NCBI GenBank assembly: GCA_021796455.1
Contig: JAKACA010000004.1
Location: 1-48,796 of the forward strand
DNA: 48,796 nt
Reading direction: 5' to 3'
From: Actinomycetes bacterium
GTDB taxonomy: Bacteria > Actinomycetota > Acidimicrobiia > Acidimicrobiales > Bog-793
This document shows, piece after piece, positions 17,577-45,044 of the stretch. A model generated the notes under the pieces. The model worked only from the letters and a program-made list of their open reading frames with translations. It was not told the origin of the DNA and did no database searches. The position numbers and the translations under genes were made by a program. The stretch's first letter is position 1, and each line of letters opens with the position of its first letter.

Positions 17577-18749
17577 TCATCCCGCTGACCACGGTGACAC
17601 AGTGGCGCCGACGTCGCGCTTGGTGATCTCGTTCGCGATGACAAGGCGCTGTATCTCCGAAGTCCCCTCCCAGATCCGATCGACACGGATGTCCCGGTAG
17701 AGGCGCTCGACGGCATACTCGCGCATGTAGCCTCTGCCGCCGAAGATTTGCACGGCGCGATCGATGACACGTCCGGCCGCCTCCGAAGCTGAGAGCTTCG
17801 CCATGGAGGCTTTGGCGTGCAGTAGCTTACGCGGCATCCCGGCATCGGCCTCCGATGCCACCTGGTAGGTAAAAGCCCTGTTAGTGGCAATCTCGACCGC
17901 GCTATCCGCGAGCATCGCCTGGATCATCTGGTTGTCGATGAGCCGACGCCCGAACTGCTCGCGGCTCTTCGCCCACTGCGTGGCCTCCCGCAGGGCACGC
18001 TCGGCGCCGCCGAGCGCTCGTGCCGCGATCATCATTCGCTCCTCGACAAACCACTCCCTTGTAAGGTCGGCTCCTCTGCCAATGCCTCCAAGGACGCTGT
18101 CCTCGCCTACGAAGACCCCGTCGAAGCGGAATATCGGATGCTTGTAGACAAAGGTGTGCATGAAGCGCGGCGTGCGCTCGATGCTCACCCCTGGCGCGTC
18201 TCGCTCCACGAGGAAGAGCGTCGGACTGGCCTCCGGCAGCACGACTGCCATCACGATCAGGAAGTCTGCGACGTCGCCAACCGTGACGAACCATTTCTCT
18301 CCGTCAACGCGGTAGCCGCCCGCGACCGGTGTCGCCGTTGTCTCGATGGAGGTGTAGTCAGATCCCGCTCCCGACTCGGTGACCGCGTAGCAGTCCCTCC
18401 GCTCTCCCCTGATGGCCGGGATCAGGTACCGATCTCGCTGCTCGGCAGTGCACGCCTTGAGCGCGTTGGCTGGCCGCCACACGGTGTCCCACAGCGCGTT
18501 CGTGAGGCAGCCAAGCTCCTCCTGGACGAGTACTTGATCGAGGATCGACAGACCGACGCCACCCCACTGCTCAGGCATGTTGATGGCGTTCAGCCCAGCG
18601 GCAAGGGTGCTCTTCTTTATCACCTCGAGCGCCTCTGCCGGCAGACCGTCCTCGGCTTCGCACTGGTCCTCAAAGCCCATGATCGACTCGGCTAGATCCC
18701 TCGCCCGTTGCTTGAGCTCGAGCTGGGAACCGGTGTAGGTCAAGTCCAT
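17577..18749 (-). CDS. Acyl-CoA dehydrogenase
   Basis: AVTESGAGSD, GEKWFVT, REQFGRRL, AVQIFGGRGYMREYAVERLYRD and IWEGTSEIQR. GGAGG RBS before ATG 18749. Confidence 0.93.
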   Translation of the reverse strand: MDLTYTGSQLELKQRARDLAESIMGFEDQCEAEDGLPAEALEVIKKSTLAAGLNAINMPEQWGGVGLSILDQVLVQEELGCLTNALWDTVWRPANALKACTAEQRDRYLIPAIRGERRDCYAVTESGAGSDYTSIETTATPVAGGYRVDGEKWFVTVGDVADFLIVMAVVLPEASPTLFLVERDAPGVSIERTPRFMHTFVYKHPIFRFDGVFVGEDSVLGGIGRGADLTREWFVEERMMIAARALGGAERALREATQWAKSREQFGRRLIDNQMIQAMLADSAVEIATNRAFTYQVASEADAGMPRKLLHAKASMAKLSASEAAGRVIDRAVQIFGGRGYMREYAVERLYRDIRVDRIWEGTSEIQRLVIANEITKRDVGATVSPWSAG

Positions 18750-19178
18750 GATCTTCCTCCTCGAAGCGGGACGACTCGTTGTTAATATAACACTCATATT
18801 ATTATCACTGCGCGGCCTTCTGACCAGCTGAGCAGGCGCGCTCTCGCCTTGTCAAAGGCACTCAGCTCAGCGCGTTGCGGGCGGAGCCCAGCAGCCGACC
18901 GAGACCAACTCGGGCGGAGCCGGACACTCGGGCGGCCACTCGCATTAGCGCGCCTTTGTGCTTTAGGATTCAACGTGGATTTTCGGCAAGCGCCAGGACA
19001 TAGACTTGGCCCTTACCAACAAGGAGATCTCCGTCAGATGGACAGGAGGACTCCCTTGGGCAAGTGACGATCAACCGTCAGTTGCTCCCGCTGTAGCGGC
19101 AAGTTAGATGCCCGCGCCCGCCGTCCGCCGCCGGCGCTCGACAGGCGAAGGGCGCTGAGACAGGCGAGAATCGAGACC

Positions 19179-21770
19179 ATGAGCCAGACGACACGCGACA
19201 CCACGCCGGATGCAACCGCGGGCGGCGCCCAGGAGGGGGTGGCTGCAGCGCGGCCAAGCACCTCGGCCCGAGCCGTCATCATCGGTGCGGGAATCGTGGG
19301 CAACAGCCTCGCCTACCACCTGGCCCGGCTTGGCTGGCGAGATCTCGTCCTTGTCGACAAGGGACCGATGCCGAATCCCGGCGGTTCGACAGGTCACGCC
19401 TCGAATTTCATCTTTCCCATCGACTACTCGAAGATGATGCTGGAGCTGACAGCCGACAGCACGGCGCAGTACAAGGAGCTGGGCGTCCACATCGAGTCGG
19501 GCGGCATAGAGGTCGCCCGCACCAAGGAGCGCGAAGAGGAATTCCGCAGGAGGCTCTCGGTCGCGAAAGCCTGGGGCATCGAGGCCGAGATCATCTCGCC
19601 GAGGGCCGTTGCCGAGCTGGTCCCCTACCTCGACCCAGATGTCATCTTGAGCGGTCTTCACTTCCCGACCTGCGGAGTGGTCGACTCACTTCGCGCGGGC
19701 ACGATCATGCGTGAGCGCGCGCAGGGTCTCGGTGCCCTCGAGGTCCGGGCCAACACTGAGGTGCTCGGAATCGAGACTGGCGCCAGCGGCCATCGTCACG
19801 TGAGACGTGTGCGCACTACGAGCGGGGATATCGAGACGGGCATTGTCGTGATCTGCTGCGGTGTCTGGAGCCCTCGGATCGCCACGATGGCTGGTGCCCA
19901 CATACCGCTCACCCCGATCGTCCACCAGATGATCAGTGTCGGGCCGATCCCTCTGTTCGCAGGTACGGTGGGCGAGATCGGCTACCCGATCGTGCGCGAC
20001 GTCGACACGAACATGTACGAGCGCCAGCACGGCGGCGACATCGAGGTGGGCTCATATGCTCACCGTCCCATCATCGTCCACCCGGATCAGATCCCCTCGA
20101 ACGAGGAGGCCTCCCTCTCTCCCACCGAGATGCCCTTCACGAAGGAGGACTTCGATCCCCAGCTCGCCCAGGCGCTCGAGCTCATGCCCGAGCTGCTCGG
20201 AGACGAGCGGGTCGGGATCCGCTATGCGATAAACGGCCTCATCTCGATCACGCCCGACGGGCACCCTGTCCTCGGGGAATCACCCGAGGTAGGGGGCCTG
20301 TGGTCCGCGGCGGCCAGCTGGATCAAGGAGGGGCCTGGCATAGGTCGTGCCGTCGCCGAATGGATGAACGGGGACAAGCCAGAGATCGACATCCACGAAG
20401 CCGACATCGATCGCTTCTACCCCTTCCAGACAACTGACCGCCATGTCGTCTCGCGCGCCTCTGAGAGCTTCAACAAGATGTACGGGATCGTGCATCCGGC
20501 TGAGCAGTGGGCGGACGAACGCGAGATACGACTCTCGCCAATGCACCAGGCCACGCGCGACCGTGGAGCGGTCTTCTTCCAAACAGCAGGTTGGGAGCGC
20601 CCCTCTTGGTACGAGAGCAACTCCTTGCTGCTCGATCGCTACGGCGCGAGGGTAATGCCGCGCGAGGCCGAGTGGGAGTCGAGATGGTGGTCGCCGATCA
20701 TAAATGCCGAGCACCTCGCGATGCGCGATGGCTGCGGACTCGTCGACCTCTCCGCCTTCGCTGTACTAGATGTCACGGGTCCCCGCGCCCTCGACTCCCT
20801 ACAGAACCTCGCCGTCGCCCAGCTTGATGTCGCTGACGGCAGGGTCGTCTACACGTCGTTCCTCGACGAGCTCGGCGGGTTCGTCGCCGACCTGACCGTG
20901 ATGAGGCTGTCTGGCGACCACTTCCGCGTCGTGACCGGAGGAGCGGGCGGCATGACCGATCGCCAGTGGATCGTGGACCACCTCCCGGCCGACGGCTCTG
21001 CCCAGCTCGCAGATTTGACCTCCGCATGGACGACCATCGGCCTGTGGGGTCCGAACGCCCGCCGCACCCTCGCGGCCACAACGCCGGACGACGTCTCCCA
21101 CGAGGCCTTTCCTTTCGGCACCTGCGCGAACATCGAGATCGCCGGAGTCGTCGGGCTCGCATCTCGGATCTCCTATGTCGGAGAGCTCGGCTGGGAGATA
21201 TATGTCCCTTTCGAGCAGGGGGCCCGCGTCTGGGCAGCCCTCTACGATGCCGGGCAGGCTTACGGGCTCGTGCCCGTCGGGATCGGCGTCTACGGCACGA
21301 CCGGCCGTCTCGAGAAGGGCTACCGGGCATTCGGAAACGAGCTCACGGCTGACTACAACCTCGTCGAAGCCGGCATGACACGCCCCTCGGTGAAGGCTCA
21401 GGAGTTCATCGGAAAGCGGGCCTACCTCTTGCAGCGCGACCAGCCAGCTACCGCAACACTTTGCAGCTTTGTCGTCGATGACCACACCGCCTCTGACGGG
21501 CGCAAGCGGTACATGCTCGGCGGCGAGCCCATCGTGAGCGCCACTGGCGAACGCATCGTTGACAAGAAGGGACGCCCTTCATATGTGACCAGTGCCGGGT
21601 CGGCTCCCTCGCTCGGGCAACACATCCTCCTTGGCTACCTGCCCAGTGAGCTGGCGGTAGTCGGTAACCGGCTGAGCGTCGAGTACATGAGCGAGCGCTT
21701 CCCGGTCACTGTCGCCGTGGCGGGCTCGACTCCGCTGTTCGACCCGGACAACGTGCGGGTGCGGTCGTGA
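19179..21770 (+). CDS. GcvT-family FAD-dependent oxidoreductase (dimethylglycine/sarcosine dehydrogenase-like, with C-terminal folate-binding domain)
   Basis: IIGAGIVG, GSTGHA (covalent-FAD His position of DMGO/DMGDH), ITPDGHPVLG, GWERPSWY, RISYVGELGWEIY and RLEKGYR. Confidence 0.9.
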   Translation: MSQTTRDTTPDATAGGAQEGVAAARPSTSARAVIIGAGIVGNSLAYHLARLGWRDLVLVDKGPMPNPGGSTGHASNFIFPIDYSKMMLELTADSTAQYKELGVHIESGGIEVARTKEREEEFRRRLSVAKAWGIEAEIISPRAVAELVPYLDPDVILSGLHFPTCGVVDSLRAGTIMRERAQGLGALEVRANTEVLGIETGASGHRHVRRVRTTSGDIETGIVVICCGVWSPRIATMAGAHIPLTPIVHQMISVGPIPLFAGTVGEIGYPIVRDVDTNMYERQHGGDIEVGSYAHRPIIVHPDQIPSNEEASLSPTEMPFTKEDFDPQLAQALELMPELLGDERVGIRYAINGLISITPDGHPVLGESPEVGGLWSAAASWIKEGPGIGRAVAEWMNGDKPEIDIHEADIDRFYPFQTTDRHVVSRASESFNKMYGIVHPAEQWADEREIRLSPMHQATRDRGAVFFQTAGWERPSWYESNSLLLDRYGARVMPREAEWESRWWSPIINAEHLAMRDGCGLVDLSAFAVLDVTGPRALDSLQNLAVAQLDVADGRVVYTSFLDELGGFVADLTVMRLSGDHFRVVTGGAGGMTDRQWIVDHLPADGSAQLADLTSAWTTIGLWGPNARRTLAATTPDDVSHEAFPFGTCANIEIAGVVGLASRISYVGELGWEIYVPFEQGARVWAALYDAGQAYGLVPVGIGVYGTTGRLEKGYRAFGNELTADYNLVEAGMTRPSVKAQEFIGKRAYLLQRDQPATATLCSFVVDDHTASDGRKRYMLGGEPIVSATGERIVDKKGRPSYVTSAGSAPSLGQHILLGYLPSELAVVGNRLSVEYMSERFPVTVAVAGSTPLFDPDNVRVRS

Positions 21771-22540
21771 TGGACATCCTTGTGTGCATTAAGCGTGTGC
21801 CGATGGTCGGTGGGCGCATCAGCCTCACCCCCGACGGGCGCGGGGTCGATACCGAGATGCTCGGTTTCACGATGAGCCCGCACGAGGAGTGCGCCGTAGA
21901 GGCAGCCGTTCGCCTCGTCGAGCGCGATGGTGGCTCGGTCACGGCCCTGACGCTCGGACCGCCCGAAGCAACCGATCAGCTCCGTGACGCGATCGCCGTT
22001 GGAGCAAATGCGGCGATCCTTCTCAAGACCGACGGCAGGGAGTGGGGCCCGACCGCGACTGCCGCCGCGATCACGGCCGTGGCCGAGCAGCACCAGGCTC
22101 AGACAGGGCGACCCTACGACCTGCTCCTCTTCGGAAACGAGGCAGCCGACACCGGCGACTACCAGGTTGCCGTGCGCGTGGCCCACCTGCTCGGCCATCC
22201 CTGTGCGACCGGGATCAAGCAGCTTGAGGTAGACGTCCACGGAGTGCACGCGAGACGCGAGTACCGCGGCGTCACCGAGCTGTTCGAGCTCCCACTCCCT
22301 GCCGTGCTGAGCGTGAAGGAGGGGATCAACCTGCCGAGATACCCATCGCTCCCGGGCCGCATGAGAGCGAAGAAGGCCCAGATCGACGAGGTGGACCCAG
22401 AGTGGCAGGGCGACGGCCTGAAGCTCGACGGATTGCGAGTCCCGATATCGGAGCGACGCCAGGCCGCAATCCTCGGTCATGGAGTCGAGGCCGTGCCGGC
22501 ACTCGTCGATCTGCTCGAGCGGCTTGGGGTGCTGTCATGA
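21770..22540 (+). CDS. etfB: Electron transfer flavoprotein beta subunit
   Basis: ILVCIKRVP, AVEAAVRL, LLFGNEAADTGDYQV and INLPRYPSL. TGATG coupling to the upstream gene. Confidence 0.9.
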   Translation: MDILVCIKRVPMVGGRISLTPDGRGVDTEMLGFTMSPHEECAVEAAVRLVERDGGSVTALTLGPPEATDQLRDAIAVGANAAILLKTDGREWGPTATAAAITAVAEQHQAQTGRPYDLLLFGNEAADTGDYQVAVRVAHLLGHPCATGIKQLEVDVHGVHARREYRGVTELFELPLPAVLSVKEGINLPRYPSLPGRMRAKKAQIDEVDPEWQGDGLKLDGLRVPISERRQAAILGHGVEAVPALVDLLERLGVLS

Positions 22541-23601
22541 GCGTCGTGTGCTTCGTGGAGCAAGACGCGGAGGGCGTGATCGTGGACTCCTCGCTGCGGG
22601 CCGTGACCTTTGCCCGTATGCTTTCAGACCAGAGCGGCGAGGAGATCGTCGCGGTGGCACTCTCGGCCAGAGCCCGTGGCTCGGGCGGCGCCGGACCAGG
22701 CAGCCTTGATGGCGCCGGGCGGAATCCGGCTGAGGGGAGCCTCTCCGAAGGTGTCGGGCAACAGGGCCATGAAGTCCTTGGGGCCTACGGCGTGGGTGAC
22801 GTCTGCCTACTGGTGCTGCCGCGCACGGTCGGCTACGCCCCGAGAGCGCTCGCGACCGGACTTGCCCAGCTCGCCGGCGCAGCCCGCGCATCGGCCGTAA
22901 TAGCAGCCTCCACGGACCACGGCAACGAGGTTATGGCGCACCTCGCGGCCCTCAGCCACCTCCCGATGGTTGCCAACTGCTCCGAAGCGAGGCGCGTAGG
23001 TCCTACTACCTTGCAGCTGAGCCGCCAGCGATGGGGAGGGAGCCTCATAGAGGACTCAGTCCTCGAGGCTGCGGTGGCTCTCCTCACTGTCGCCACGGAC
23101 GAAGTGGCACCGGTCCTCGCGCCGGCTGCCAGCGAGCCGGCGGCACGGACTTTCACCCCGGAGCTGGCCGAGACCGACATCGCCGTACGCGCGATCGAGT
23201 CTCGCGACGCCACCTCAGGGGTCTCCCTGGCCAATGCCAAGGTGGTGGTGAGTGGAGGACGAGGGATCGGTGGGGCTGAGGGTTTCGCGGCCGTCGAGCA
23301 GCTCGCGGGTCTCCTGGGTGGCGCAGTCGGCGTCTCGCGCGCGGTCACGAGCCTCGGCTGGAGGCCCCACTCGGAGCAGGTGGGCCAGACCGGCACGCGC
23401 GTCTCGCCTGATCTCTATATCGCGTGTGGGATCTCGGGCGCCATCCAGCACCTGGCCGGATGCCAGAGCGCCAAGGTGATGGTGGCGATCAACACCGACC
23501 CTCAGGCTCCGATCATGGGACGGGCGGACTACGCCGTCATCGGCGATGTGAACGCCATCCTGCCGGCGCTCGTGGACGCACTTTCCCAGAGGAGCCGCTA
23601 A
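22537..23601 (+). CDS. etfA: Electron transfer flavoprotein alpha subunit
   Basis: VVVSGGRG, QVGQTG, PDLYIACGISGAIQHLAG, INTDPQAPI and ADYAVIGD. ATGA overlap. Confidence 0.93.
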   Translation: MSVVCFVEQDAEGVIVDSSLRAVTFARMLSDQSGEEIVAVALSARARGSGGAGPGSLDGAGRNPAEGSLSEGVGQQGHEVLGAYGVGDVCLLVLPRTVGYAPRALATGLAQLAGAARASAVIAASTDHGNEVMAHLAALSHLPMVANCSEARRVGPTTLQLSRQRWGGSLIEDSVLEAAVALLTVATDEVAPVLAPAASEPAARTFTPELAETDIAVRAIESRDATSGVSLANAKVVVSGGRGIGGAEGFAAVEQLAGLLGGAVGVSRAVTSLGWRPHSEQVGQTGTRVSPDLYIACGISGAIQHLAGCQSAKVMVAINTDPQAPIMGRADYAVIGDVNAILPALVDALSQRSR

Positions 23602-24209
23602 CCGCCTGCCCTGCTTGACAGCCGCTCGAGCTCATCGGCAAGGCCCGTGATCCCGGTGTCGATGACCTCGAGCGGCAGGGAGAGCATCTCGGCTATCGCA
23701 TCTGCACGGAGCTCCAGATCGGCGGTGCGTCGCTGGGCCAGCCACACAACCCGGCGGTAGTTGCCGAAGTAGTCAGGCCAGAGCTCGGGGTAGCGGTCGA
23801 GTCCGAGCTCTTGGACCACCGTGCGCTCGAAGCTGCGCACGAGGAAGTCGGTAAGGACATAAGTCCCCGGCTCCTCCGCGAAGACCGCCTCCACCACCTT
23901 GGAGCCGGCGAACACGTCGTAGCAGTGAAGGCCCGCGAGACGCTCTATACCGAGAGAGGTGCAGATCTCGTCAAGAGCGCCATAGGTGCCACAGTCCGCG
24001 TAGGCGACGACAACAGTACGGCCTTCGCTTTGGAGCTGTCCCGCCATGCGCGCGACCTCGCCCGCAATGAGCTCGGGGTGATTGTGCAACAGCGGTGGGA
24101 GGGTCCGAACCTCGACCCCGTCACCGGCTCTTGCGCTTGACCGCAAAGCAGCACGCACTTCGGCGGCGATGGCACCGCAGGCTATGACGACAACGCCCGC
24201 GCGCGCCAC
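23598..24209 (-). CDS. DUF1638-domain protein (corrinoid methyltransferase/RamA-associated)
   Basis: VIACG..AEV, LPPLLHNHP, YADCGTYG, HCYDVFAG and PGTYVLTDFL. GTG start 24209 with GGAG RBS; the ORF-track start at 24350 overlaps the upstream gene. Confidence 0.8.
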   Translation of the reverse strand: MARAGVVVIACGAIAAEVRAALRSSARAGDGVEVRTLPPLLHNHPELIAGEVARMAGQLQSEGRTVVVAYADCGTYGALDEICTSLGIERLAGLHCYDVFAGSKVVEAVFAEEPGTYVLTDFLVRSFERTVVQELGLDRYPELWPDYFGNYRRVVWLAQRRTADLELRADAIAEMLSLPLEVIDTGITGLADELERLSSRAGG

Positions 24210-24273
24210 GTCGCTCTCCGCTTCCTTCGACGACCCATCAGGCGCACTTGCGTCGCCAAGCGCGGCTGACCCA

Positions 24274-26145
24274 TCAGGGCCCCGCGGTGGGGAACTGCAG
24301 CAACTCGACGAAGCGGTCGTTGAAGTCAGCGCGATCGGAGAGCTCCACATACTTCACCTCCTCGAGCAGTGCCATGGCTCCGGCGCGCTCGCGGATGCTT
24401 AGGAGCGCCATCTTCGCTCCCTCGCCGGCGACGTTGCCGGCGCTCACAACTCTGAGCACGGGGAGCTTCGGTACGAGTCCGAGCCGGACTGCATTTGCGG
24501 GCGAGAGGTAGCTCCCGAACGAGCCGGCGAGCAACACCTGCTGGACATCTCCTGGCACTATCCCGGCGTCCTCCAGCAAGAGGTTCCAGCCAGTGGCGAT
24601 CGCGGCCTTCGCGAACTGCAGCTCTCGCACGTCGCGCTGGGACAGGTAGATCGAGGAGCTCGCCTCTCCACGCCAGTGCAGGACAAAGACGCGCTCGGCG
24701 CCCACCGTCGTCAGCCGAGCCGCTACTCCCGGAGCGATACGCGCAGCCACCTCCTCGGCAACAAAACGCCCCGAGCGATCCACCAGTCCGCAAGCAACCA
24801 GCTCTGCCACCGCGTCCACGAGACCTGATCCGCATATCCCGATCGGTTCCGCGTCGCCGATCACGCGCAGCTCGAGTGCGTCGGGCGATATCCGCACCCC
24901 TTCGATCGCTCCGGTCGAGGCCCGCATCCCACATCTGATAGCCGCACCCTCGAACGCTGGACCCGCCGGGGCCGCCGTTGCGAGGATCCGCTCGCCGCTC
25001 GCGAGAACGATCTCGCAGTTGGTACCGATGTCGATGAAGAGGCGGGTCCGCGGGTCACGATCCATGCCCGACGCGAGCAGTCCTGAGATGATGTCACCGC
25101 CGACGTACGCCCCAAGTGCCGGGAACACCACGGCCCGAGCCCGCGGGTGAATCCGAACGCCGACGTCGCTCGCAAGAACCTCTGGCCACTTGCGCGCGGT
25201 CATCACAAACGGTGCCATGCCGAGCGGCTCGGGGTCGATGCCCAGCAGTATGTGGGTCATAGTGGCATTACCTGCGACAGCTACCTCGTAGACCTCGGCC
25301 GGGTCGACACCTCCTTCGCGGCAGACGTCGCGAGCCAACTCGTCGAGAGCTCCGTGAGCGAGGCCAGTCAGCCGTTCGAGGGCTCGCTCGTCCATCATTA
25401 TCGTGCTTATGCGAGTGATCACGTCTGCCCCGAAAGTCTGCTGGGGGTTGAGCTTCGAGGCCACCGCGACTGGTGTCCCGGTAACGAGGTCGAGGAGGGT
25501 CGCCACCACCGTCGTCGTGCCGAGATCGAAAGCAATGCCGAAAATCCGCTCGCTCGTGTCACCCGGCTCCAGGTCGATGAGGGCCTCATCTACCACCACC
25601 GCAGTCACGCCAGCCTCCGGGCCGGGGCTGTTCTGGTCGGCCCTGAGCAGCTTGCCGATCCGCCGGAGAGCGTAGAGATCCACCTTCAGCTCGAGATCGT
25701 CCATCGCGGCAAGGATCCGCTCGACGTCGCTCGTCTGGTCCGAGAGGGACGGAGTGCTCAAAAGGAGGTGGCGTTTTTGCACCGCTGGGCGGAGGATGAC
25801 CTTGCGTCCCACCCCGACGGTGGCGGCTTTGGGTCTCGTCTCGAGCGGTGGAACGTCGACGTCGAGGTCGGAGTGGACCTCGACGCGACAGGCGAGGCGC
25901 CACCCCTTCTTGAGCTGGTCGGGGAGAAAGGCCCGCGTGTCCAAGGCGGTAATCGGCGCGTCCCCCGCGAGGATCTGGACCTTGCACTTCTTGCACGTTC
26001 CGTGCCCACCGCAGGTGGAGTCGATCGCGATGCCGTTCCAGCTGGCGGCATCGAACAAGGTCACCCCTTCCGGGACGCGGACCTGACGACCACTCGGCTC
26101 GAAACGCAGATCGACCCGGCCGAGACCGTCGCGTACCGTGGTCAC
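24274..26145 (-). CDS. Reductive activator of corrinoid proteins (RACo/RamA-like; [2Fe-2S] + ASKHA ATPase, DUF4445)
   Basis: CGGHGTCKKC...RLAC, FDLGTTT, NPQQTFGADVITR, DIGTNCE, AGPAFEG, ICGSGLVD, QFAKAAI and AGSFG. Confidence 0.92.
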   Translation of the reverse strand: MTTVRDGLGRVDLRFEPSGRQVRVPEGVTLFDAASWNGIAIDSTCGGHGTCKKCKVQILAGDAPITALDTRAFLPDQLKKGWRLACRVEVHSDLDVDVPPLETRPKAATVGVGRKVILRPAVQKRHLLLSTPSLSDQTSDVERILAAMDDLELKVDLYALRRIGKLLRADQNSPGPEAGVTAVVVDEALIDLEPGDTSERIFGIAFDLGTTTVVATLLDLVTGTPVAVASKLNPQQTFGADVITRISTIMMDERALERLTGLAHGALDELARDVCREGGVDPAEVYEVAVAGNATMTHILLGIDPEPLGMAPFVMTARKWPEVLASDVGVRIHPRARAVVFPALGAYVGGDIISGLLASGMDRDPRTRLFIDIGTNCEIVLASGERILATAAPAGPAFEGAAIRCGMRASTGAIEGVRISPDALELRVIGDAEPIGICGSGLVDAVAELVACGLVDRSGRFVAEEVAARIAPGVAARLTTVGAERVFVLHWRGEASSSIYLSQRDVRELQFAKAAIATGWNLLLEDAGIVPGDVQQVLLAGSFGSYLSPANAVRLGLVPKLPVLRVVSAGNVAGEGAKMALLSIRERAGAMALLEEVKYVELSDRADFNDRFVELLQFPTAGP

Positions 26146-26239
26146 CGTGACCTCGAGTCATACAACTGCCATTTGCAGGGGCCGTAAAGATGAGCTCCGC
26201 GAACCAGGAACGGATCGACCACCTGTCTCACGGTGGCAA

Positions 26240-27187
26240 TCAGCTCGCGCCGAGCGACGCAGCCGGCCCGCCAACGGCGGTGCCTGCGCCCGGCTCGGCC
26301 TCGGCCGCTGCCTGCGCGGCCGCTGCCTGCGCGACCCCTACCTGCTCGGCACGGTGACGAGATATCCACGACGCGCCCCACGGGTCGCGGTCAAGCAGGA
26401 GGTCCGCCGCCTTGGCCGCCCTCACGATCTCTGGAGAGCGTGCGTCGACTATCGCGCTGGTCAGCCCTGCAACCATCGCCATCGGCAGGAAGGCGGCACC
26501 GATGGCAGACCGATTCGGCATCCCGAAGGAGACGTTGGAGGCACCAAGGGTCATGTTCAATCCGAACTCTGACCGTATGAGTGAGATTGTGTCGAGAGTG
26601 CGGCGGACAAGCACGGTGTCAGCGCCGATCGGCATCGCGAGGGGATCGATGACAATGTCCTCGAGTGGGATCTGGTACTTGCCGTTTGCCACGTCCAGGA
26701 TTTTGCGAACGAGCTCAAGCCTGCGCTCGGGCTGCTCGGGAATCTCCTCCTCGTCGTTGGGCAGGCAGATGATCGCCGCTCCGTGGCGCTTCACGAGCGG
26801 CAAGATCGCGTCCATCCTCTCGTCCTCGGCGGTGACGGAGTTGACGAGCGCCTTTCCCTCATATGTCGCTAGCCCTGCTTCGAGCACCTCGATTATCGAT
26901 GAGTCGATCACGAGGGGAAGATCGGTGAGGCTCTGGATGAGTCGGACGGCCTTTCTCATCAGCTCCGCCTCGTCGGCAAGGGGCACGCCCATGTTCACGT
27001 CGAGGACCATCGCACCCCCAGCCACTTGGTCGGCGACATCTCGCTCGATCCTGGAAAGATCGTCGGAGCGAAGCTGCTCCTGGAAGAGCTTGCGCCCCGT
27101 CGGGTTGATCCGCTCCCCGATTATGCAAAACGGCTGGTCTTCGCCGATTACGACCTCTTTGGAGGCCGAGCGGAGAACGGTGTGCAC
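26240..27187 (-). CDS. Pterin-binding methyltransferase (stand-alone MetH folate domain / methylcorrinoid:THF methyltransferase, MtgA/AcsE-like)
   Basis: IIGERINPTG, LDVNMG, PLVIDSS, LVNSVTAE, IDPLAMP and GASNVSFGMPNR. Confidence 0.88.
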   Translation of the reverse strand: MHTVLRSASKEVVIGEDQPFCIIGERINPTGRKLFQEQLRSDDLSRIERDVADQVAGGAMVLDVNMGVPLADEAELMRKAVRLIQSLTDLPLVIDSSIIEVLEAGLATYEGKALVNSVTAEDERMDAILPLVKRHGAAIICLPNDEEEIPEQPERRLELVRKILDVANGKYQIPLEDIVIDPLAMPIGADTVLVRRTLDTISLIRSEFGLNMTLGASNVSFGMPNRSAIGAAFLPMAMVAGLTSAIVDARSPEIVRAAKAADLLLDRDPWGASWISRHRAEQVGVAQAAAAQAAAEAEPGAGTAVGGPAASLGAS

Positions 27188-27239
27188 GTGATACCTGTCC
27201 TTCTTGTTGATCGAGGGGGATACCGGTTGACCCTGGAGC

Positions 27240-27905
27240 TCAGGCCTGGCCGACGAGACGGTGCTTCTTCACGAGCTCCTTCGCGCGGTTGACAGCGGTA
27301 GAGGCATCGGCCGCGTAGCCGTCCGCGCCGACCGCGTCGGCGTACTCCTGGGTGACCGGAGCACCGCCGACCATGACCATCACCTTGTCTCTGAGGCCCG
27401 CCTTCTCGAGAGCGTTGATGTTCGCCTTGAACATGGGCATCGTCGTCGTCAAGAACGCCGAGAAACCCACGATGTCCGGCTGGTGCTCCTCGACTGCTGC
27501 GACGAACTTCTCCGGCGCTACCTGGACTCCCAAGTCGACCACCTGGAATCCCGCGCCCTCCAGCATGATATTGCAGAGGTTCTTCCCGATGTCGTGGACG
27601 TCGCCCTTGACGGTCCCCATGACAAAGGTGCCGATCGACTCAACGCCGGTCTCGATCAGCAACGGTCTCAAGCGGTCCATCGCGCCGGCCATCGCTCTAC
27701 CAGCGATCAGCATCTCCGGCACGAAGAAGTCCCCGCGCTCGAAGCGCGCACCGACCTCCTCCAGGGAAGGAATGAGCGCGTTGAACAGCAACGCCTCGGG
27801 GCTGAGCCCCATCTCGAGGCCAACGTTGGTGAGCTCGAGCACCGCGGGCGCATTGCCGACGAGCGTCAGGTCGTAGAGCTGGGCCAGTAGCTCTTCTTCG
27901 TTCAT
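27240..27905 (-). CDS. Corrinoid (B12-binding) protein, MttC/MtgC-like
   Basis: Cap domain (FFVPEML) plus GTVKGDVHDIGKN (DxHxxG), SAFLTTT, VGGAPV and GADGY. Confidence 0.93.
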   Translation of the reverse strand: MNEEELLAQLYDLTLVGNAPAVLELTNVGLEMGLSPEALLFNALIPSLEEVGARFERGDFFVPEMLIAGRAMAGAMDRLRPLLIETGVESIGTFVMGTVKGDVHDIGKNLCNIMLEGAGFQVVDLGVQVAPEKFVAAVEEHQPDIVGFSAFLTTTMPMFKANINALEKAGLRDKVMVMVGGAPVTQEYADAVGADGYAADASTAVNRAKELVKKHRLVGQA

Positions 27906-28687
27906 GCGGCTCCCTCTCTTCGTGGTCGGTAACCAAGCAGGTGTGACAGGGCATTGCTCTCACGTACACAGGCGGCCACGGCGTCGCCCAGTCGCTTCGA
28001 ACTTAGACGGGTGACCGGACCCGAGACCGACAGCGCGGCTACGGCCGTGCCGCCATCGCTGTAGACAGGGGACGAGATCGCGACCAGGCCCGGCTCTAGC
28101 TCCTCGTCCGTCACCGCAAACCCGCGGCGGCGAACCTCGTCCAGCTGGGCCGACAGCACCGCTCTGCTCGTGATCGTGTTCGCGGTCAGGCGCTCGAGCC
28201 TCCCGGGCCGAAGCGCGGCAACACCGTGGGCGAGGAGCACTTTTCCTTGGGCACTGCAGTGCAGCGGTACGGCGCGTCCAACCCAGTTGGTGGCTCCGAG
28301 CACATAGGAGCTGTCGACCTGCGCTATCTGCTCTACAAAGCCCGCGCTCGCGACTCCAGGGTTGATGGTCTCGCGCGTCACCTCGCCCAGGCGCTCGAGA
28401 AAAGGTTGCGCGATCTCCACGAGATCCGGCTCACGTCCCTTCTTCCACGCGTAGCGGATGAAGACGGCACCGGGCAGGTAGCCACTGTTCGCCTCGCGCC
28501 TCACAAGGCCGTGGCGCTCGAGGGCGAACAGCAGGCGCGATGTCGTGCTCTTGGCAAGTCCGCTCGCCGCGGCCAGCTCGGAGAAGGTGAGCGCCTCGTT
28601 GGCGTCGACGATGTCGGTCAGCAAACGGGCAGCGCGATCCACTGCCTGCGTGCCTGTAGGGCTGGCGGAGCTGTTGGTGTTGGTCAT
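27902..28687 (-). CDS. IclR family transcriptional regulator, first gene of the corrinoid operon
   Basis: QAVDRAARLL...GLAKSTTSRLL, PLHCSAQGKVLLA and LSVSGP. Its stop overlaps the corrinoid-protein start (ATGA). Confidence 0.92.
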   Translation of the reverse strand: MTNTNSSASPTGTQAVDRAARLLTDIVDANEALTFSELAAASGLAKSTTSRLLFALERHGLVRREANSGYLPGAVFIRYAWKKGREPDLVEIAQPFLERLGEVTRETINPGVASAGFVEQIAQVDSSYVLGATNWVGRAVPLHCSAQGKVLLAHGVAALRPGRLERLTANTITSRAVLSAQLDEVRRRGFAVTDEELEPGLVAISSPVYSDGGTAVAALSVSGPVTRLSSKRLGDAVAACVRESNALSHLLGYRPRREGAA

Positions 28688-28737
28688 CGCATCTGGGAGA
28701 TCTTCTGGCTGGCAGCGGTAGTTCCACGTTCTGGCAG

Positions 28738-28775
28738 TTCCACGCTACGGAATGCTATCCTACTATGTGATAGCA
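28738..28775. promoter_or_regulatory. Candidate IclR operators in the divergent iclR/mttB promoter
   Basis: TTCC-N7-GGAA (28738-28752) directly followed by TGCTATC-N9-GATAGCA (28753-28775). AGTTCCACG occurs twice just upstream and overlapping. Confidence 0.5.
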
Positions 28776-28805
28776 CCTTACCACAGCCGAGACGACGAGG
28801 TAGTC

Positions 28806-30245
28806 ATGTTCGAGAACCGTATGCCCCGTTACGAGATACTTTCCGAAGACGCCATCGCCGTTCTCGACAAGGGGTGGCGGCGCATCGTGTCGGAGATCGG
28901 GGTCCAGTTCGCCAAGCCCGAGGCGGTCGAGCTTTTTGCCGCCGCCGGCCAGAAGATCGACGGCGAGGTGGTATATCTCGACCCCGACTTCGTGCTCGCC
29001 CAGGTGGCGCTCGCTCCTTCGGAGTTCGACGTGCAGGCTCGCAACCCGGCCAACTCGGTCCACATCGGGGGGAACAACATGGTCTTCTCCGGAGTCTACG
29101 GGCCGCCCTTCGTGCGCGAGGGCGACGTCCGGCGGGACGCGACGATGCAGGACTTCCGGCGTTTTTGCATGCTCGCTCAGAGCTTCGCCGAGCTCGACTC
29201 TGCGGGCGGAGTGATCTGCGAGCCGAGCGATGCTCCCCTGGACTCGCGCCACCTCGACATGATCTTCGCCCTTCAGACCCTCACCGACAAGATCTACATG
29301 GGCAACGTCGTATCGGGCCAAAATGCCCTCGACACGATAGCCATGACAGAGATCCTCTTCGGCGGCTCCGAGACGATCAGGCAGGCTCCGGCAACCATCT
29401 CTCTCATCAACTGCAACTCCCCGCTGCGATGGGACGACCGGATGCTCGATGCGCAGTTCGAGTACAACAAGGCGCACCAGCCCGTCGTGCTGACCCCGTT
29501 CCTCCTCATGGGCGCCATGTCCCCCGTGACGATCCCGGCTGCACTCGTACAGCAGCTCGCCGAGGCCCTATCGGGTATCGCCCTCTCACAGCTGATCGCC
29601 CCTGGGTGCCCTGTGATCTTCGGGTCTTTCCTTTCCAACATCGACATGCAGTCCGGCTCACCGACCTTCGGTACGCCGGAGTCTGCCATGGGGCTGCTCT
29701 GCACCGGCCAGCTCGCCCGTCACTTCGGGCTGCCCTTCCGCTCCGGAGGTGGCCTGACCTCTAGCCAGACGGCGGACGCCCAGGCCGGCTATGAGGCACT
29801 CATGACGCTGCTGCCGACATTCCTTGCCGGGACCAACTTCGTCATGCACGCGGCCGGTTGGCTCGAGGGTGGCCTCGTCAGCTGCTACGAGAAGTTCGTC
29901 ATAGACATCGAGCTCTTGAGGATGATGCAGGTGGAGTTCACGCCGCTCGAGATCGACGAGGATGCGCTGGCCTTCGGCGCGCACGAAGAAGTCGGGCACG
30001 GCGGCCACTTCCTCGGTGCCTCGCACACGATGGATCGCTTCCGCGACTGCTTCTACCGGCCGATCCTCTCTTCTTCCAAGAACTTCGAGCGCTGGAAGAG
30101 AGACGGGTCCTTAGATGCCGCCGCCCGCGCCTCGGATATCAGCAAGGAGACGCTCGATGCCTACGAGCCTCCCCCGCTCGACAGCGCCGTGCGCGAAGAG
30201 TTGGAGGACTATGTCACCCGACGGCGACGTGAGCTCGGAGACTGA
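28806..30245 (+). CDS. Trimethylamine methyltransferase superfamily, non-pyrrolysine member (MtgB glycine-betaine methyltransferase-like)
   Basis: NSPLRWD, GAMSPVT..ALVQ, DMQSGSPTFGTPE, PFRSGGGLTSSQTADAQAGYE (Leu at the Pyl position, no in-frame TAG), MHAAGWLEGG..SCYEKF and GGHFLG. ATG 28806 with GAGG. Confidence 0.92.
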   Translation: MFENRMPRYEILSEDAIAVLDKGWRRIVSEIGVQFAKPEAVELFAAAGQKIDGEVVYLDPDFVLAQVALAPSEFDVQARNPANSVHIGGNNMVFSGVYGPPFVREGDVRRDATMQDFRRFCMLAQSFAELDSAGGVICEPSDAPLDSRHLDMIFALQTLTDKIYMGNVVSGQNALDTIAMTEILFGGSETIRQAPATISLINCNSPLRWDDRMLDAQFEYNKAHQPVVLTPFLLMGAMSPVTIPAALVQQLAEALSGIALSQLIAPGCPVIFGSFLSNIDMQSGSPTFGTPESAMGLLCTGQLARHFGLPFRSGGGLTSSQTADAQAGYEALMTLLPTFLAGTNFVMHAAGWLEGGLVSCYEKFVIDIELLRMMQVEFTPLEIDEDALAFGAHEEVGHGGHFLGASHTMDRFRDCFYRPILSSSKNFERWKRDGSLDAAARASDISKETLDAYEPPPLDSAVREELEDYVTRRRRELGD

Positions 30246-30332
30246 GCCCGCCTTGTAAGCGGGGCCCTGCCGCCTTGGCGAGCGTCCTCGTCGAGGCCGC
30301 GTCCTCCTCGTGCACCCATTACCTTTCCTCAA

Positions 30333-30854
30333 GTGCCTCGCGACTCTCTCATCCTTATAAATACGGGCGACGGCAAGGGGAAGTCGTCGGCAGCCTTCGG
30401 CGTCATGGGCAGGGGGTGGGCCAGAGGTTGGACGGTGGCTGTCGTACAATTCGTGAAGAGCGGCAAGTGGAAGACCGGCGAACGCAAGCTCGCGGATCAT
30501 CTGGGCATCGAGTGGCATACTCTCGGAGACGGCTTCACCTGGGAGTCGACGGACCTTGACGAGACGGCGGCCAAGGGTCGGCACGCCTGGGACGTCACAG
30601 CCGCCAAGCTCGCGAGCGGCCAATACGACCTTCTCATATTGGACGAGATCACCTACGCGATGAAATACGGCTGGGTCCCCGTGGAAGAAGTCGTCTCCGC
30701 GCTCGTCGCTCGCAACCCTCGCACCAACGTCGTGCTCACCGGACGCGACGCGCCGCAGGAGATAATCGAGATCGCCGACACGGTGACCGAGATGCGCAAG
30801 CTCAAGCATGCTTACGACAGGGGCATCGTCGCGCGCAAGGGAATCGAGTACTGA
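30333..30854 (+). CDS. cobO: Cob(I)yrinic acid a,c-diamide adenosyltransferase (CobA/CobO/BtuR)
   Basis: NTGDGKGKSSAAFG, QFVKSG, GDGFTW, LILDEI, VVLTGR, ADTVTEM and KHAYDRG..ARKGIEY. Confidence 0.92.
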   Translation: MPRDSLILINTGDGKGKSSAAFGVMGRGWARGWTVAVVQFVKSGKWKTGERKLADHLGIEWHTLGDGFTWESTDLDETAAKGRHAWDVTAAKLASGQYDLLILDEITYAMKYGWVPVEEVVSALVARNPRTNVVLTGRDAPQEIIEIADTVTEMRKLKHAYDRGIVARKGIEY

Positions 30855-30958
30855 CGCGAGGCGTCGCCACGTCGGTTGGCAGCCCGCTTCGCCTCGACGT
30901 GCGGGCGCGACTTGGGCAGGTCGCCGAGCGACGATAATGAAAACATGCAGGAGTACTC

Positions 30959-31645
30959 ATGAGCAGCAACGGCGAGACCCATGTAGGTCGGCGCGCCGTG
31001 CTCGGGATGGCTGCTCTCGGTGCGGCGGGCATCGCCTTTGGAGCAAGTATCGACAATGCGGTGGGTGGCACCCTTACCCGGCTCAGCAACGACCTCGGAG
31101 CTCTCGGCGCCCTCGTGCCTGGCGCCGACGAGTTTCGTATCTACACCGTCACCGGCTCGATCCCGGTCATATCGCCGGCCTCTTACAGGCTCCGCGTCGG
31201 CGGCATGGTCAAGAGTCCGCTCGAGCTGTCGCTTGACGACCTGAGGGCGATGAAACGCACGAGGCTGGTCCACTACTTCCAGTGCGTGACAGGTTGGCGC
31301 GTGCCTTCAGTCCACTGGGAGGGCGTCCAGCTCTCAGAGATCCTCAGCCACGCGGGCGCGACCGAGTCGGCAACCGCTTTGCGCTTCTTGTCCGGAGACG
31401 GCGTGTACACCGAGTCGCTGACCATGAGCCAGGCACAGCTCCCTGACGTTCTCGTAGCGGACCGGATGATAGGCGACGACGTCACGCCAGACCACGGGGG
31501 TCCGGTCCGCCTCTACGTAGCCCCGATGTACGGCTACAAATCGATCAAGTGGCTCGACCGCATCGAAGTCAGCGACACGGTAGTCCCTGGGTATTGGGAG
31601 AACTTCGGCTACCCCGTGAACGGCTGGATCGGCGGCGTCGCTTGA
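30959..31645 (+). CDS. Molybdopterin-dependent oxidoreductase (short sulfite-oxidase family, MsrP/YuiH-like), Tat signal
   Basis: GRRAVLG, FQCVTGW (Mo-ligand Cys), WEGVQL, HGGPVRL..P.YGYKSIKW and GYWENFGY. Confidence 0.88.
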   Translation: MSSNGETHVGRRAVLGMAALGAAGIAFGASIDNAVGGTLTRLSNDLGALGALVPGADEFRIYTVTGSIPVISPASYRLRVGGMVKSPLELSLDDLRAMKRTRLVHYFQCVTGWRVPSVHWEGVQLSEILSHAGATESATALRFLSGDGVYTESLTMSQAQLPDVLVADRMIGDDVTPDHGGPVRLYVAPMYGYKSIKWLDRIEVSDTVVPGYWENFGYPVNGWIGGVA

Positions 31646-32307
31646 GCCTGAGAATCCGCCAGGATGAGGTAGCCCGGGGAGCGACCCGGGGCCACAATAT
31701 CTGGCTGGACCGCTTCGACGTGGTCGAACGAGTTGTCCACTGGACAACGGCAATATTGATGCTGGTGCTTCTGGCAACAGGTGCGATCCTCTACATCCCG
31801 TCGTTGTCGATAGCAGTAGGCCACCGCGCCGCCGTAGCGGGCATCCACGTGTTCGGCGGCATTGCCCTGCTCCTGCCACTCGCGCTCGGTGTGGCGGGGC
31901 CCTGGAGGCAAAGGCTGCTGCGAGATCTGCGACGATTGGACTGCTGGTCGGCGGCAGACTGGGAGTGGTTTCGCCGCCCCGGCCGGCGCCTCGGGCTGGC
32001 ACGGGGCAAGTTCAACGGAGGACAGAAGGCCGAAGCCGCATTCGTTGCCGGCGGCATGGTGGTCATGCTCGCCTCGGGGGTCATCATGGGCTATGCCCCA
32101 GCGCGCTGGATCTACTGGCAACAAGGAGCAACGCTCGTGCACGACTGCGGCTTTGTCGCGCTCGGCATTGGCATCGCTGTTCACATCTACTACGGCCTCA
32201 CGCGTCCCGAGCAGCTGCGCTCGATGCTGACAGGTCGCATCCCAAGATCCTGGGCGGCGAAGAACGCGCCGGTCTGGGCGGAGGAGGCCGAAAGCGGCCA
32301 GCCCTAA
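31642..32307 (+). CDS. Cytochrome b (FdnI/b561-like) membrane subunit
   Basis: RFDVVERVVHW, GIHVFGG, GKFNGGQK, LVHD, VHIY and SMLTG..W. TTG start overlaps the upstream stop. Confidence 0.85.
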   Translation: MSLRIRQDEVARGATRGHNIWLDRFDVVERVVHWTTAILMLVLLATGAILYIPSLSIAVGHRAAVAGIHVFGGIALLLPLALGVAGPWRQRLLRDLRRLDCWSAADWEWFRRPGRRLGLARGKFNGGQKAEAAFVAGGMVVMLASGVIMGYAPARWIYWQQGATLVHDCGFVALGIGIAVHIYYGLTRPEQLRSMLTGRIPRSWAAKNAPVWAEEAESGQP

Positions 32308-33503
32308 GCCAGGCCGAGCTCGGCCTCCACCGCGCTCGTGTGCTCGCCGAGACGGGGAGGGGCAATGCGGTACGAGACGGGTGTCCGGGAGAAACCCATC
32401 GGGTTGCGCACCTGCGACTGCGGAGATGGATCGGCCGCAGCCGCCGGTCGAGCCACGCTGTCGCGTTCCAGGTGCACGACCGGTCCGAGGCCGAGATGCT
32501 CAGCCAGATCGAAGGCCTGCGCGATGTCGTTGACGACGCCACAGGGGATCCCGGCAGCTTGAATCCGAGATACCCAGTCGGCCGCCGGCCGTAGCACGAG
32601 CTCGGCCTCGAGGACCTCGACGAGAGCCTCGCGGTTGGCGACCCGGTCAGCGTTGGATCTGAAACGGTCGTCGCTGGCAAGTGCGGAAAGGCCCACCGCT
32701 TTGGCGAAAGCCACGAACTGAGCGTCGTTCGCGACTGCGACGAGAACTGGGCCGTCCTTGGCCCGCAGTGTCTCGTATGGAGCGATGCTGGGGTGACGGT
32801 TGCCCATGGCACGAGGAACCGTGCCGGTGGTTATATAAGTCGAGGCTTGATTGATGAGAGCCGACAGGACCGACGAGAGCAGGTTCACCTCTACGCGCTG
32901 TCCGAGCCCGGATCGCTCTCGCTCGAAGATGGCCGCGAGGATCGCGTTCGCGGCGAACTGCGCTGTGAGCACGTCGACCACGGCAACCCCGACCTTGCGC
33001 GGTTCGCTTCCCGGATCACCGGTGATCGACATGAGACCGCCGACTCCTTGGACGAGGAAGTCGTATCCCGGGAGCGCGGCACCCTCACCCGAAGTGCCGA
33101 ATCCGGACACCGAGCAGTAGATCACCCTCGGGTTGACCGCGGCGATGTCCTCATAGCCGAGGCCGAGTCGTGCCGCCGTCCCCGGCCGGAAGTTCTCGAC
33201 AACGACGTCGGCGCGCTGGGCGAGCGCCACTGCCTTGCCTTTGCCGTCATCGCTTGCGAGATCCCAGGCGACGCTACGCTTGTTGCGATTTATCGCCAGG
33301 TAGTAGGAGCTTTCCCCACCGGTGAACGGCGGCCCGAAGCCCCGCGTGTCGTCACCTTGGCCCGGCCGCTCCACCTTGATGACGTCGGCTCCAAGGTCGC
33401 CCAGCAGCATCGTGGCAAAAGGGCCGGCCACCACCCGCGAGAAGTCGGCGACGACGATCCCCTCGAGCGGGCCACGTGCCTCGCCGGCGCGTCGCTCGAT
33501 CAC
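32304..33503 (-). CDS. Class III CoA transferase (CaiB/BaiF family)
   Basis: PLEGIVVADFSRVVAGPF, DLGADVIKVE, NRNKRS, VENFRPG, PGYDFLVQ and PPRLGEHT. GTG 33503 overlaps the upstream stop. Confidence 0.92.
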   Translation of the reverse strand: MIERRAGEARGPLEGIVVADFSRVVAGPFATMLLGDLGADVIKVERPGQGDDTRGFGPPFTGGESSYYLAINRNKRSVAWDLASDDGKGKAVALAQRADVVVENFRPGTAARLGLGYEDIAAVNPRVIYCSVSGFGTSGEGAALPGYDFLVQGVGGLMSITGDPGSEPRKVGVAVVDVLTAQFAANAILAAIFERERSGLGQRVEVNLLSSVLSALINQASTYITTGTVPRAMGNRHPSIAPYETLRAKDGPVLVAVANDAQFVAFAKAVGLSALASDDRFRSNADRVANREALVEVLEAELVLRPAADWVSRIQAAGIPCGVVNDIAQAFDLAEHLGLGPVVHLERDSVARPAAAADPSPQSQVRNPMGFSRTPVSYRIAPPRLGEHTSAVEAELGLA

Positions 33504-38945: not shown

Positions 38946-38999
38946 ACATGGCGCCGACATGGCCATGGGTGCACTCTGTCTGAAGATGGAGATCGTCGC

Positions 39000-40226: not shown

Positions 40227-40232
40227 CTGGGC

Positions 40233-41948: not shown

Positions 41949-42035
41949 CGACTCCGACCTCTCAGCGCAGACGGGAGATGTTTCCTTGGCACCGGCGGAT
42001 CATACAAACCCGCTGGCGCAAGTAGTGATCGCGCC

Positions 42036-45009: not shown

Positions 45010-45044
45010 GCCCATGCGGGCCGGGAGCTCCGAAGTCAGGCTGC

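Follow-up and report, generated by a model that had tools for sequence, protein, structure and literature searches.

Does an uncultured actinobacterium strip methyl groups from glycine betaine with the help of cobalamin while it respires oxygen? The question is raised by positions 19179-30854 of a 48,796-nucleotide stretch of DNA from an Actinomycetes bacterium (GenBank assembly GCA_021796455.1, contig JAKACA010000004.1; the whole stretch is called the window below), where a gene of the MttB methyltransferase superfamily lies together with genes for a corrinoid protein, a pterin-binding methyltransferase and a reductive activase, next to an operon for a flavoprotein of the dimethylglycine oxidase (DMGO) type and both subunits of an electron-transfer flavoprotein (ETF). 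A first-pass annotation of this DNA had read the region as a hybrid route that takes a quaternary amine to a tertiary and then to a secondary amine; the completeness of the module, the co-conservation of its two arms and the oxygen-respiring host all support this functional reading. We put at about 0.6 the probability that the window carries an Acidimicrobiia-type actinobacterial version of the aerobic MtgBCD route, with a DMGO-type second demethylation. This type of pathway has been known since 2025 in aerobic Proteobacteria; the window is therefore a new lineage and not a new pathway, and the mechanism itself is not new.

An open reading frame (ORF) listing combined with a Pfam profile search confirmed every gene that had been named in the region at first pass. 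The mttB gene (28803-30245, plus strand; 480 aa counted from M18) matches the Pfam family MTTB (PF06253) with 621.6 bits over profile positions 21-500 of 500. It is divergent from a minus-strand operon, which opens with a regulator of the IclR family (27902-28687; HTH_IclR and IclR_C) and continues with an MtgC-like corrinoid (B12-binding) protein (27240-27905; B12-binding_2 and B12-binding), whose DxHxxG motif reads DVHDIG at residue 102; a methylcobalamin:tetrahydrofolate methyltransferase of the MeTr/MetH-folate-domain (MtgD) type (26240-27187; Pterin_bind); a RACo-type reductive activase of corrinoid proteins (24274-26145), in which the N-terminal 2Fe-2S domain, the linker, the middle domain and the C-terminal ASKHA ATPase are all present (Fer2, RACo_linker, Raco_middle and RACo_C_ter); and, as the final gene, a DUF1638 protein (23598-24350; DUF1638, 76 bits). 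The module is complete, with a substrate methyltransferase, a corrinoid protein, a tetrahydrofolate (THF) methyltransferase, an ATP-dependent reductive activase and DUF1638. The second arm lies on the plus strand and consists of the DMGO-type flavoprotein (19179-21770, 863 aa; DAO, FAO_M, GCV_T and GCV_T_C, all four above their cut-offs), etfB for the ETF beta subunit (21767-22540; ETF, 110 bits) and etfA for the alpha subunit (22537-23601; ETF and ETF_alpha).

These genes are packed very tightly, as can be read from the sequences of the junctions. The start of etfB (GTG at 21767 or ATG at 21770) overlaps the TGA of the dehydrogenase gene, and the TGA of etfB and the ATG of etfA overlap as ATGA at 22537, so that the translational coupling of dehydrogenase, etfB and etfA, as described in the first-pass annotation, is seen directly. 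Similarly, the iclR stop and the start of the corrinoid-protein gene overlap as ATGA (27902-27905), and where the arms meet tail to tail, at 23598-23601, their stop codons overlap. This convergent junction is not an assembly artefact, since sequencing runs of two studies yielded contigs (X3 record 11 and X5 record 21) that span 21269-26049. The called DUF1638 ORF overlaps RACo by 77 nt, which leaves its start position uncertain.

The two arms also stay together in related genomes. We compared the window proteins by tblastn with the loci of the best 80 relatives of the window MttB (79-97% identical, all of them loci in metagenome-assembled genomes, MAGs), tallying genes at a query coverage of at least 50% and the dehydrogenase/ETF arm at a coverage of at least 30%. 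IclR was found in 77 of the 80 loci, the corrinoid protein and the pterin methyltransferase in 75 each, RACo in 70 and DUF1638 in 62; most misses among these core genes are on contigs that end early. Three arrangements account for the 39 loci that have the arm within 10 kb of mttB: 26 share the layout of the window, with the arm upstream on the plus strand; in six (L009, L024, L026, L027, L034, and L070) it follows mttB directly and on the same strand; and in seven it is upstream but on the minus strand. A further 24 loci have full flanks but no arm; 22 of these 24 genomes have a dehydrogenase that is 71-75% identical to that of the window (one in two pieces, one partial, and one with an internal TGA), in 20 cases on apparently the same contig as mttB and 11-29 kb away by coordinate subtraction. 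In about 59 of the 80 loci the arm is thus within about 30 kb of mttB. Linkage maintained through three rearrangements is good evidence for a shared function of both arms, and the co-conservation on which the first-pass reading depended is borne out.

Genes of folate and choline metabolism accompany the module in some of its relatives. For example, in L024, a complete chromosome, the minus-strand operon extends beyond DUF1638 into a gene similar to methylenetetrahydrofolate reductase (MTHFR), and mttB is followed by dehydrogenase, etfB and etfA and then by a GMC oxidoreductase gene, with a PurU-like formyl transferase gene nearby. Across the related loci, the MTHFR-like gene was seen in 50 of 80, PurU in eight and a BetA-like GMC oxidoreductase in seven. 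Most of the ORFs picked in two loci (L006 and L020) had no Pfam match.

The flavoprotein is, by its closest solved relative, a member of the DMGO type: N,N-dimethylglycine oxidase (1pj5) matches it over its full length with 526 bits, and mammalian dimethylglycine dehydrogenase (DMGDH) with 275 bits. Residues H48, H225 and Y259 of DMGO (1pj5) align with identical residues in the flavoprotein, namely H73, H249 and a tyrosine; we take H48 to be the histidine that binds flavin adenine dinucleotide (FAD) covalently, and H225 and Y259 to be the active-site histidine and tyrosine. We propose that the flavoprotein is an ETF-linked, THF-dependent dimethylglycine dehydrogenase. Its translational coupling to etfB-etfA, in an order kept in all three arrangements, suggests a dehydrogenase rather than an oxidase. 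The window's own genome encodes three further DAO+GcvT fusion proteins, 28-36% identical to this one, on contigs C244 (locus L085, 1327-7302) and C63 (locus L084, 14936-17362); two of them flank a choline-kinase-like gene, and all are candidate sarcosine or other N-methyl dehydrogenases.

The MttB protein belongs to the non-pyrrolysine members of its superfamily, as had been annotated: the reading frame has no in-frame stop (no UAG), the score against TIGR02369, the equivalog model for trimethylamine methyltransferase, is 276.7 and thus below the cut-off of 525, and the pyrrolysine-containing MttB (7xcl) is matched with just 133 bits. The best solved match is 4yyc (443 bits); MtgB of Desulfitobacterium hafniense scores 401 bits. 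We aligned the window MttB with PDB entry 9yce (native numbering is chain numbering plus 2), since the glycine betaine contacts of D. hafniense MtgB are known to be Y97, F356, R312 and H348 (Picking et al., 2026, PMC13080624). Of the betaine-binding residues, which the first-pass annotation had suggested checking, three are retained, Y97 as Y116, R312 as R330 and H348 as H366, and one is not, with G374 in place of F356. None of the 80 orthologues departs from the carboxylate-binding pair R330/H366 or from the tyrosine Y116. Enzymes that do not act on betaine also have R312 and, less consistently, H348, but not the aromatic pair Y97/F356 (PMC13080624). The strongest pointer to glycine betaine comes from the gene context, that is, the DMGO-like neighbour together with the BetA-like, MTHFR-like and PurU genes in related loci. 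Glycine betaine is the likely but unproven substrate of MttB, and the first-pass annotation was right that the true substrate cannot be read from sequence. A second MttB paralogue is encoded on another contig of the same genome (C146, locus L083, 8962-11906); it has 513 aa, is 41% identical and carries a glycine at the Y116 position, and the gene after it encodes a stand-alone GcvT-like protein (399 aa). The two MttBs may share the corrinoid protein and RACo, of which the genome has one stand-alone copy each.

Several observations weigh against the betaine route proposed here. In the synteny sample, 17 of the 80 contigs are too short to judge the arm; genome G422 has only a 36% identical paralogue of the dehydrogenase, and G423 has none at E <= 1e-100. 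The MTHFR-like gene is absent from the window, and MTHFR matches in its genome (3.57 Mb in 334 contigs, 93% complete) are weak, the best scoring 52 bits, on contig C150; this sole candidate is 40% identical to the cluster-linked MTHFR-like gene. In the same genome no match was found to Fer4_ETF_QO (the acceptor of ETF), to CbiC, or to the betaine transporters BCCT and OpuAC, and there is no RNA run among the listed sequencing runs that contain window DNA. DMGO of Arthrobacter globiformis is an oxidase, and it is from the gene coupling alone that we take ETF to be the electron acceptor of the flavoprotein. The aromatic cation-pi pair of MtgB (Y97 and F356) is only half kept, with the glycine at F356 found in 80 of 80 orthologues and in 4YYC; a tryptophan four residues upstream (W370), invariant in the 80 orthologues and with the same pattern in 4YYC, could assume the role of F356, but this is a guess. 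The window MttB and D. hafniense MtgB are about 48% identical (49 of 102 residues in one block, counted by eye), which is no proof of specificity: MtyB and MtcB, at 53% identity, differ in their substrate preferences (PMC8604678), while the MtgB enzymes of M. vulcani and D. hafniense share 65% identity (PMC6855144). In addition, no MtgB of the aerobic type is known to have been assayed as an enzyme, and the MtgB candidates of Ruegeria were assigned by proteomics (PMC12478193).

The points that concern substrate would also suit the same machinery working on another compound, such as proline betaine, carnitine, gamma-butyrobetaine, choline/phosphocholine or trigonelline, with the flavoprotein acting on the demethylated product of that substrate or on sarcosine. 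The loss of F356, the missing BCCT and OpuAC transporters and the divergent preferences of the 53% identical pair all fit such a view, and R312 and H348 are also present in MtcB, MtpB, MthB and MtyB (PMC13080624). The surroundings of the module raise the same suspicion: a CaiB-like CoA-transferase gene (32304-33920) as well as genes for an acyl-CoA dehydrogenase and enoyl-CoA hydratases lie nearby in the window. These neighbours are not conserved with the module, however; the CoA-transferase was found in two of the 80 loci, the acyl-CoA dehydrogenase in one (at 28% identity) and the genes labelled SBP, ECH, ACS and TetR in none, and a carnitine-like substrate, which they had suggested, was set aside on these counts of 0-2 in 80. 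A 49% identical CoA-transferase does recur in locus L006. What is conserved instead is the DMGO-type enzyme, along with the MTHFR-like and BetA-like genes at the frequencies given above, and Y97, which is not conserved in the non-betaine enzymes (PMC13080624), is invariant in the window orthologues. We therefore regard a different substrate as unlikely, though it is the alternative that deserves most attention.

A second alternative turns on the direction of methyl flow. The corrinoid protein and the pterin methyltransferase are homologous to the MtgC and MtgD counterparts of Sinorhizobium meliloti, and since these two proteins have a dual function in Ruegeria pomeroyi (PMC12478193), the module might chiefly work like the split methionine synthase of Phaeobacter and Ruegeria, moving methyl groups from methyl-THF through the corrinoid to homocysteine with MttB as a side entry. 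The scores of the three proteins against known families are as follows. The corrinoid protein fits best, among NCBIfam models, those of MtgC (201.6 bits, below the cut-off of 370); RACo reaches 422.5 bits with AcsV, below the cut-off of 800; and the pterin methyltransferase exceeds the cut-off of PRK07535 (286 versus 259 bits). Its best PDB match is MeTr (2yck), with MetH and 4o0q also matched, and no MtgA entry is among its PDB matches at E <= 0.001; MtgA is described as having no sequence identity to MeTr and MetH (PMC7154762). As for homocysteine, the genome has a single S-methyl_trans match, which lies on contig C51 in a 1393-aa frame with pterin and B12 domains, a classical MetH. A separate MtgE was not found in the 93%-complete genome, where bmt (MtgE) of S. 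meliloti matches only the MetH region. The presence of a classical MetH and the lack of a separate homocysteine module argue that the module is catabolic. It is also linked to a dimethylglycine-type dehydrogenase and is probably co-regulated with mttB, which makes the split methionine synthase very improbable. A third alternative is that the module serves the anaerobic methylotrophy assumed in peat Actinobacteriota and that the dehydrogenase/ETF operon is unrelated to it. Three-component systems with a corrinoid are sensitive to oxygen, and bacterial mtxB genes are treated as markers of anaerobic methylotrophy (Ellenbogen et al., 2023, PMC10805028), but the genome has COX1, the arm is linked to mttB in three gene orders (including directly downstream on the same strand) and at the distances given above, and the closest full system comes from an aerobe, S. 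meliloti, so that we consider this reading highly unlikely.

For the betaine route, the following sequence of events is proposed. MttB (28803-30245) would demethylate a quaternary amine with a carboxylate group, most likely glycine betaine, and transfer one methyl group to the Co(I) of the corrinoid protein (27240-27905), and the pterin methyltransferase (26240-27187) would pass it on to THF. RACo (24274-26145), probably together with DUF1638, would re-reduce Co(II) at the expense of ATP, a repair that would matter in a host that respires oxygen. The dimethylglycine left behind would be oxidised by the flavoprotein (19179-21770), with the second methyl group reaching THF as methylene-THF and the electrons passing to the dedicated EtfBA (21767-23601) and not to O2. 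Finally, IclR (27902-28687) probably controls both divergent promoters through a conserved GTTCC-N7-GGAAC site. The gene content, the homologies, the operon structure, the co-conservation and the gene repertoire of the host are observed; from these we infer the substrate, which way the methyl groups flow, that ETF accepts the electrons, and the regulation.

The evidence for such regulation is found in the iclR-mttB spacer, which contains the sequence GTTCCACGCTACGGAAT at 28737-28753 (plus strand). The degenerate pattern of this inverted repeat, GTTCCAYNYTRCGGAAY, has one match in the window, where chance alone predicts 0.01, and a single match in each of 44 of the 80 loci, in every case a short way upstream of mttB; in the alignment the repeat is followed by a conserved TACTAT-like element. 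We interpret this site as a putative IclR operator that overlaps the mttB promoter. The position of the operator also bears on the start of mttB. The ORF was called from 28752, but the true start is most likely 28803 (M18), because most of the 120 listed orthologues have 479 aa and because the earlier ATG shares bases with the conserved operator. No Rfam family reached its gathering score in the window, so that a cobalamin riboswitch was not found there, and a scan of 18700-31100 for consensus promoters and terminators gave no more hits than shuffled sequence.

The host can be described from its own genome and from those of its relatives. Its nearest relatives, all MAGs, bear the titles Acidimicrobiales or Acidimicrobiaceae, in line with the initial label of an apparent actinobacterium; the titles of all 80 MAGs with the best MttB relatives also include Actinomycetes, Actinomycetota, Streptosporangiaceae and Nocardiopsaceae. 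COX1 is present (519.9 bits), from which we conclude that the host respires with oxygen. The host is apparently unable to make corrinoids, given the missing CbiC. BetA, on contig C92 (locus L092, 1453-6956), scores above the NCBIfam equivalog cut-off (826.9 versus 732.1 bits) and adjoins an aldehyde dehydrogenase gene, so that choline could be an internal source of glycine betaine. On the other strand of C92 there is a gene for an Oxidored_FMN+Pyr_redox_2 protein, cut by the contig end.

The MttB orthologues are common among close relatives and thin out quickly beyond them. Eight of the nine other genomes of the same genus (including G426, which is unpublished) have one at 83-97% identity, and within the same family an orthologue is present in 14 of 24 genomes; in the other families of the order, three of 16 genomes have a match, at no more than 46% identity. 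In an even sample of 400 Actinomycetota genomes, an MttB-family match (E <= 1e-50) was found in 48, of which just three are at 71-72% identity. The family as a whole is very large: all 8000 scored clusters (at 90% identity) of the protein collection match at E <= 1e-20, and the best 120 listed proteins, 82-96% identical to the window MttB, have only generic names, for example "trimethylamine methyltransferase family protein". Orthologues of 80-84% identity were also seen in MAGs titled Streptosporangiaceae, Nocardiopsaceae and even Gemmatimonadota (L010, L014, L023, L028-L029 and others; P0055), some of them 5-9 Mb in size; their high identity, compared with at most 46% in the other families of the host's own order, suggests horizontal spread or loose taxonomic labels. 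The source metagenomes of Acidimicrobiia-type carriers are of mine-drainage, sediment, soil or peat type. Sequencing runs of several studies, with the label mine drainage or sediment metagenome, contain the window DNA almost in full, and in four such runs 28-30 of its 30 bins are covered.

If this reading of the window is correct, aerobic cobalamin-dependent breakdown of betaine extends from marine Proteobacteria to uncultured Acidimicrobiia-type Actinomycetota, and a very large set of genes named "trimethylamine methyltransferase family protein" gains a function that can be tested. Such genes would then mark aerobic osmolyte catabolism and B12 dependence, and not anaerobic methylotrophy. We advance only tentatively, and as a doubtful conjunction, the wider picture in which the orthogroup is a major betaine sink, aerobic and dependent on B12, among the Actinomycetota of soil, peat and mine sites, with Trp370 taking the place of Phe356 in the pocket, a dedicated ETF turning a DMGO-type oxidase into a respiratory dehydrogenase, and, as the host apparently lacks corrinoid synthesis, betaine turnover in these soils that depends on the B12 of other organisms.

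The remaining genes around the module are of local interest. A gene for an ATP:corrinoid adenosyltransferase of the CobO/BtuR type follows mttB (30333-30854, plus strand; CobA_CobO_BtuR, 210.9 bits). The first-pass annotation had counted it with the system; the gene is indeed there, but with only three of the 80 related loci having it near mttB, it counts as an accessory of this locus rather than as a conserved component of the module. Just after cobO is an MsrP/MsrQ-like pair (Oxidored_molyb and cytochrome b561; 30959-32307), which is next to mttB in two of the 80 related loci. Further on, the CoA-transferase III ORF overlaps a 731-aa ORF by 420 nt (32304-35695, minus strand), and its start is probably further downstream; the 731-aa ORF combines an NAPRTase N-terminal domain with an isochorismatase domain and may be a fused PncB-PncA. 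The region 38820-46475 contains genes resembling those of amine catabolism: saccharopine dehydrogenase-like, DMFA2_C (similar to the beta subunit of N,N-dimethylformamidase), aldehyde dehydrogenase, a DAO flavoprotein and a class-III aminotransferase.

How does the window compare with systems already described? The aerobic MtgBCD route has been shown in R. pomeroyi (Mausz et al., 2025, PMC12478193), and the claim of novelty made at first pass was overstated to that extent; full-text searches, which did not extend to the supplementary genome lists of PMC12478193 and PMC10805028, found no characterisation of the system in Actinomycetota. In R. pomeroyi, mtgC and mtgD were shown genetically to be needed for growth on betaine, and MtgC and MtgD serve both betaine demethylation and methionine synthesis; the MtgB candidates, RamA and DUF1638 are induced on N-osmolytes, and marine members of the Alpha-, Gamma- and Deltaproteobacteria often carry the genes for later demethylation steps in the same neighbourhood (PMC12478193). 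The same study assigned 5% of ocean mtgC reads to Actinomycetota, and a study of peat reports that Actinobacteriota there express methyltransferase genes for the demethylation of methylated amines (PMC10805028).

A sequence comparison with proteins of this aerobic MtgBCD(E) type, which is known from R. pomeroyi, Phaeobacter inhibens and S. meliloti (PMC12478193), was made with those of S. meliloti. By tblastn, MttB homologues of at most 46% identity occur in 141 plasmid records, from Paracoccus, Sinorhizobium, Rhizobium, Leisingera, Ruegeria and others. In the S. meliloti locus, a cobalamin-binding protein gene is divergent from an MttB-family gene, with genes for DUF1638, a formyl transferase, MTHFR, a methyl-THF:cobalamin methyltransferase, an ASKHA protein, bmt and a glycine betaine/proline ABC transporter; the MttB of this cluster is PDB entry 4YYC itself (1189.9 bits over 524 aa). 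The record concerned (CP090106.1, L093) has the title plasmid pSymB, yet given its length of 3.72 Mb it may be a mislabelled chromosome. Identity between the window proteins and their S. meliloti counterparts is 46.8% for the corrinoid protein, 44.4% for MttB, 42.6% for the pterin methyltransferase, 40.5% for DUF1638 and 32.2% for RACo. The two types share the MttB-family MtgB, the stand-alone corrinoid protein, the MeTr/MetH-like methyltransferase, the RamA/RACo activase and DUF1638, as well as an aerobic host and nearby genes for later demethylation; in both the window and S. meliloti, mttB is divergent from the corrinoid-protein gene, and the pocket motif HAAGWLEGGLVS is common to 4YYC and the window MttB. 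The differences are that the window belongs to another phylum, Actinomycetota, that its operon is headed by an IclR gene, that its dimethylglycine step has a DMGO-type enzyme with its own EtfBA, and that its host has a classical MetH and no separate MtgE, so that no dual role in methionine synthesis is expected.

Anaerobic and single-enzyme systems offer further comparisons. The MtgB/MtgC/MtgA system of D. hafniense, with RamA, resembles the window in the MttB protein, which is related to MtgB and keeps Y97, R312 and H348. It differs in having F356 where the window has glycine, and in a THF methyltransferase of another family (MtgA); in addition, the window host is aerobic, and dimethylglycine, the end product in D. 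hafniense, would be oxidised further in the proposed route. A. globiformis DMGO (1PJ5) shares the four-domain architecture of the flavoprotein, with the histidine at the position of the covalent FAD, H225 and Y259 kept, but it passes its electrons to O2, whereas the window gene is translationally coupled to etfB-etfA; in this respect the window dehydrogenase is suggested to be more like mitochondrial DMGDH, although that match is only 275 bits. Lastly, the MtpB, MtcB, MtyB and MthB systems of Eubacterium limosum offer, by their description, a likeness to the window's genome: several MttB paralogues there share the corrinoid protein MtqC, and here two paralogues (on C146 and on the window's contig, C4) are found with one corrinoid protein. 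In contrast, E. limosum is an anaerobic acetogen, its systems feed the Wood-Ljungdahl pathway, and their substrates have been proven biochemically.

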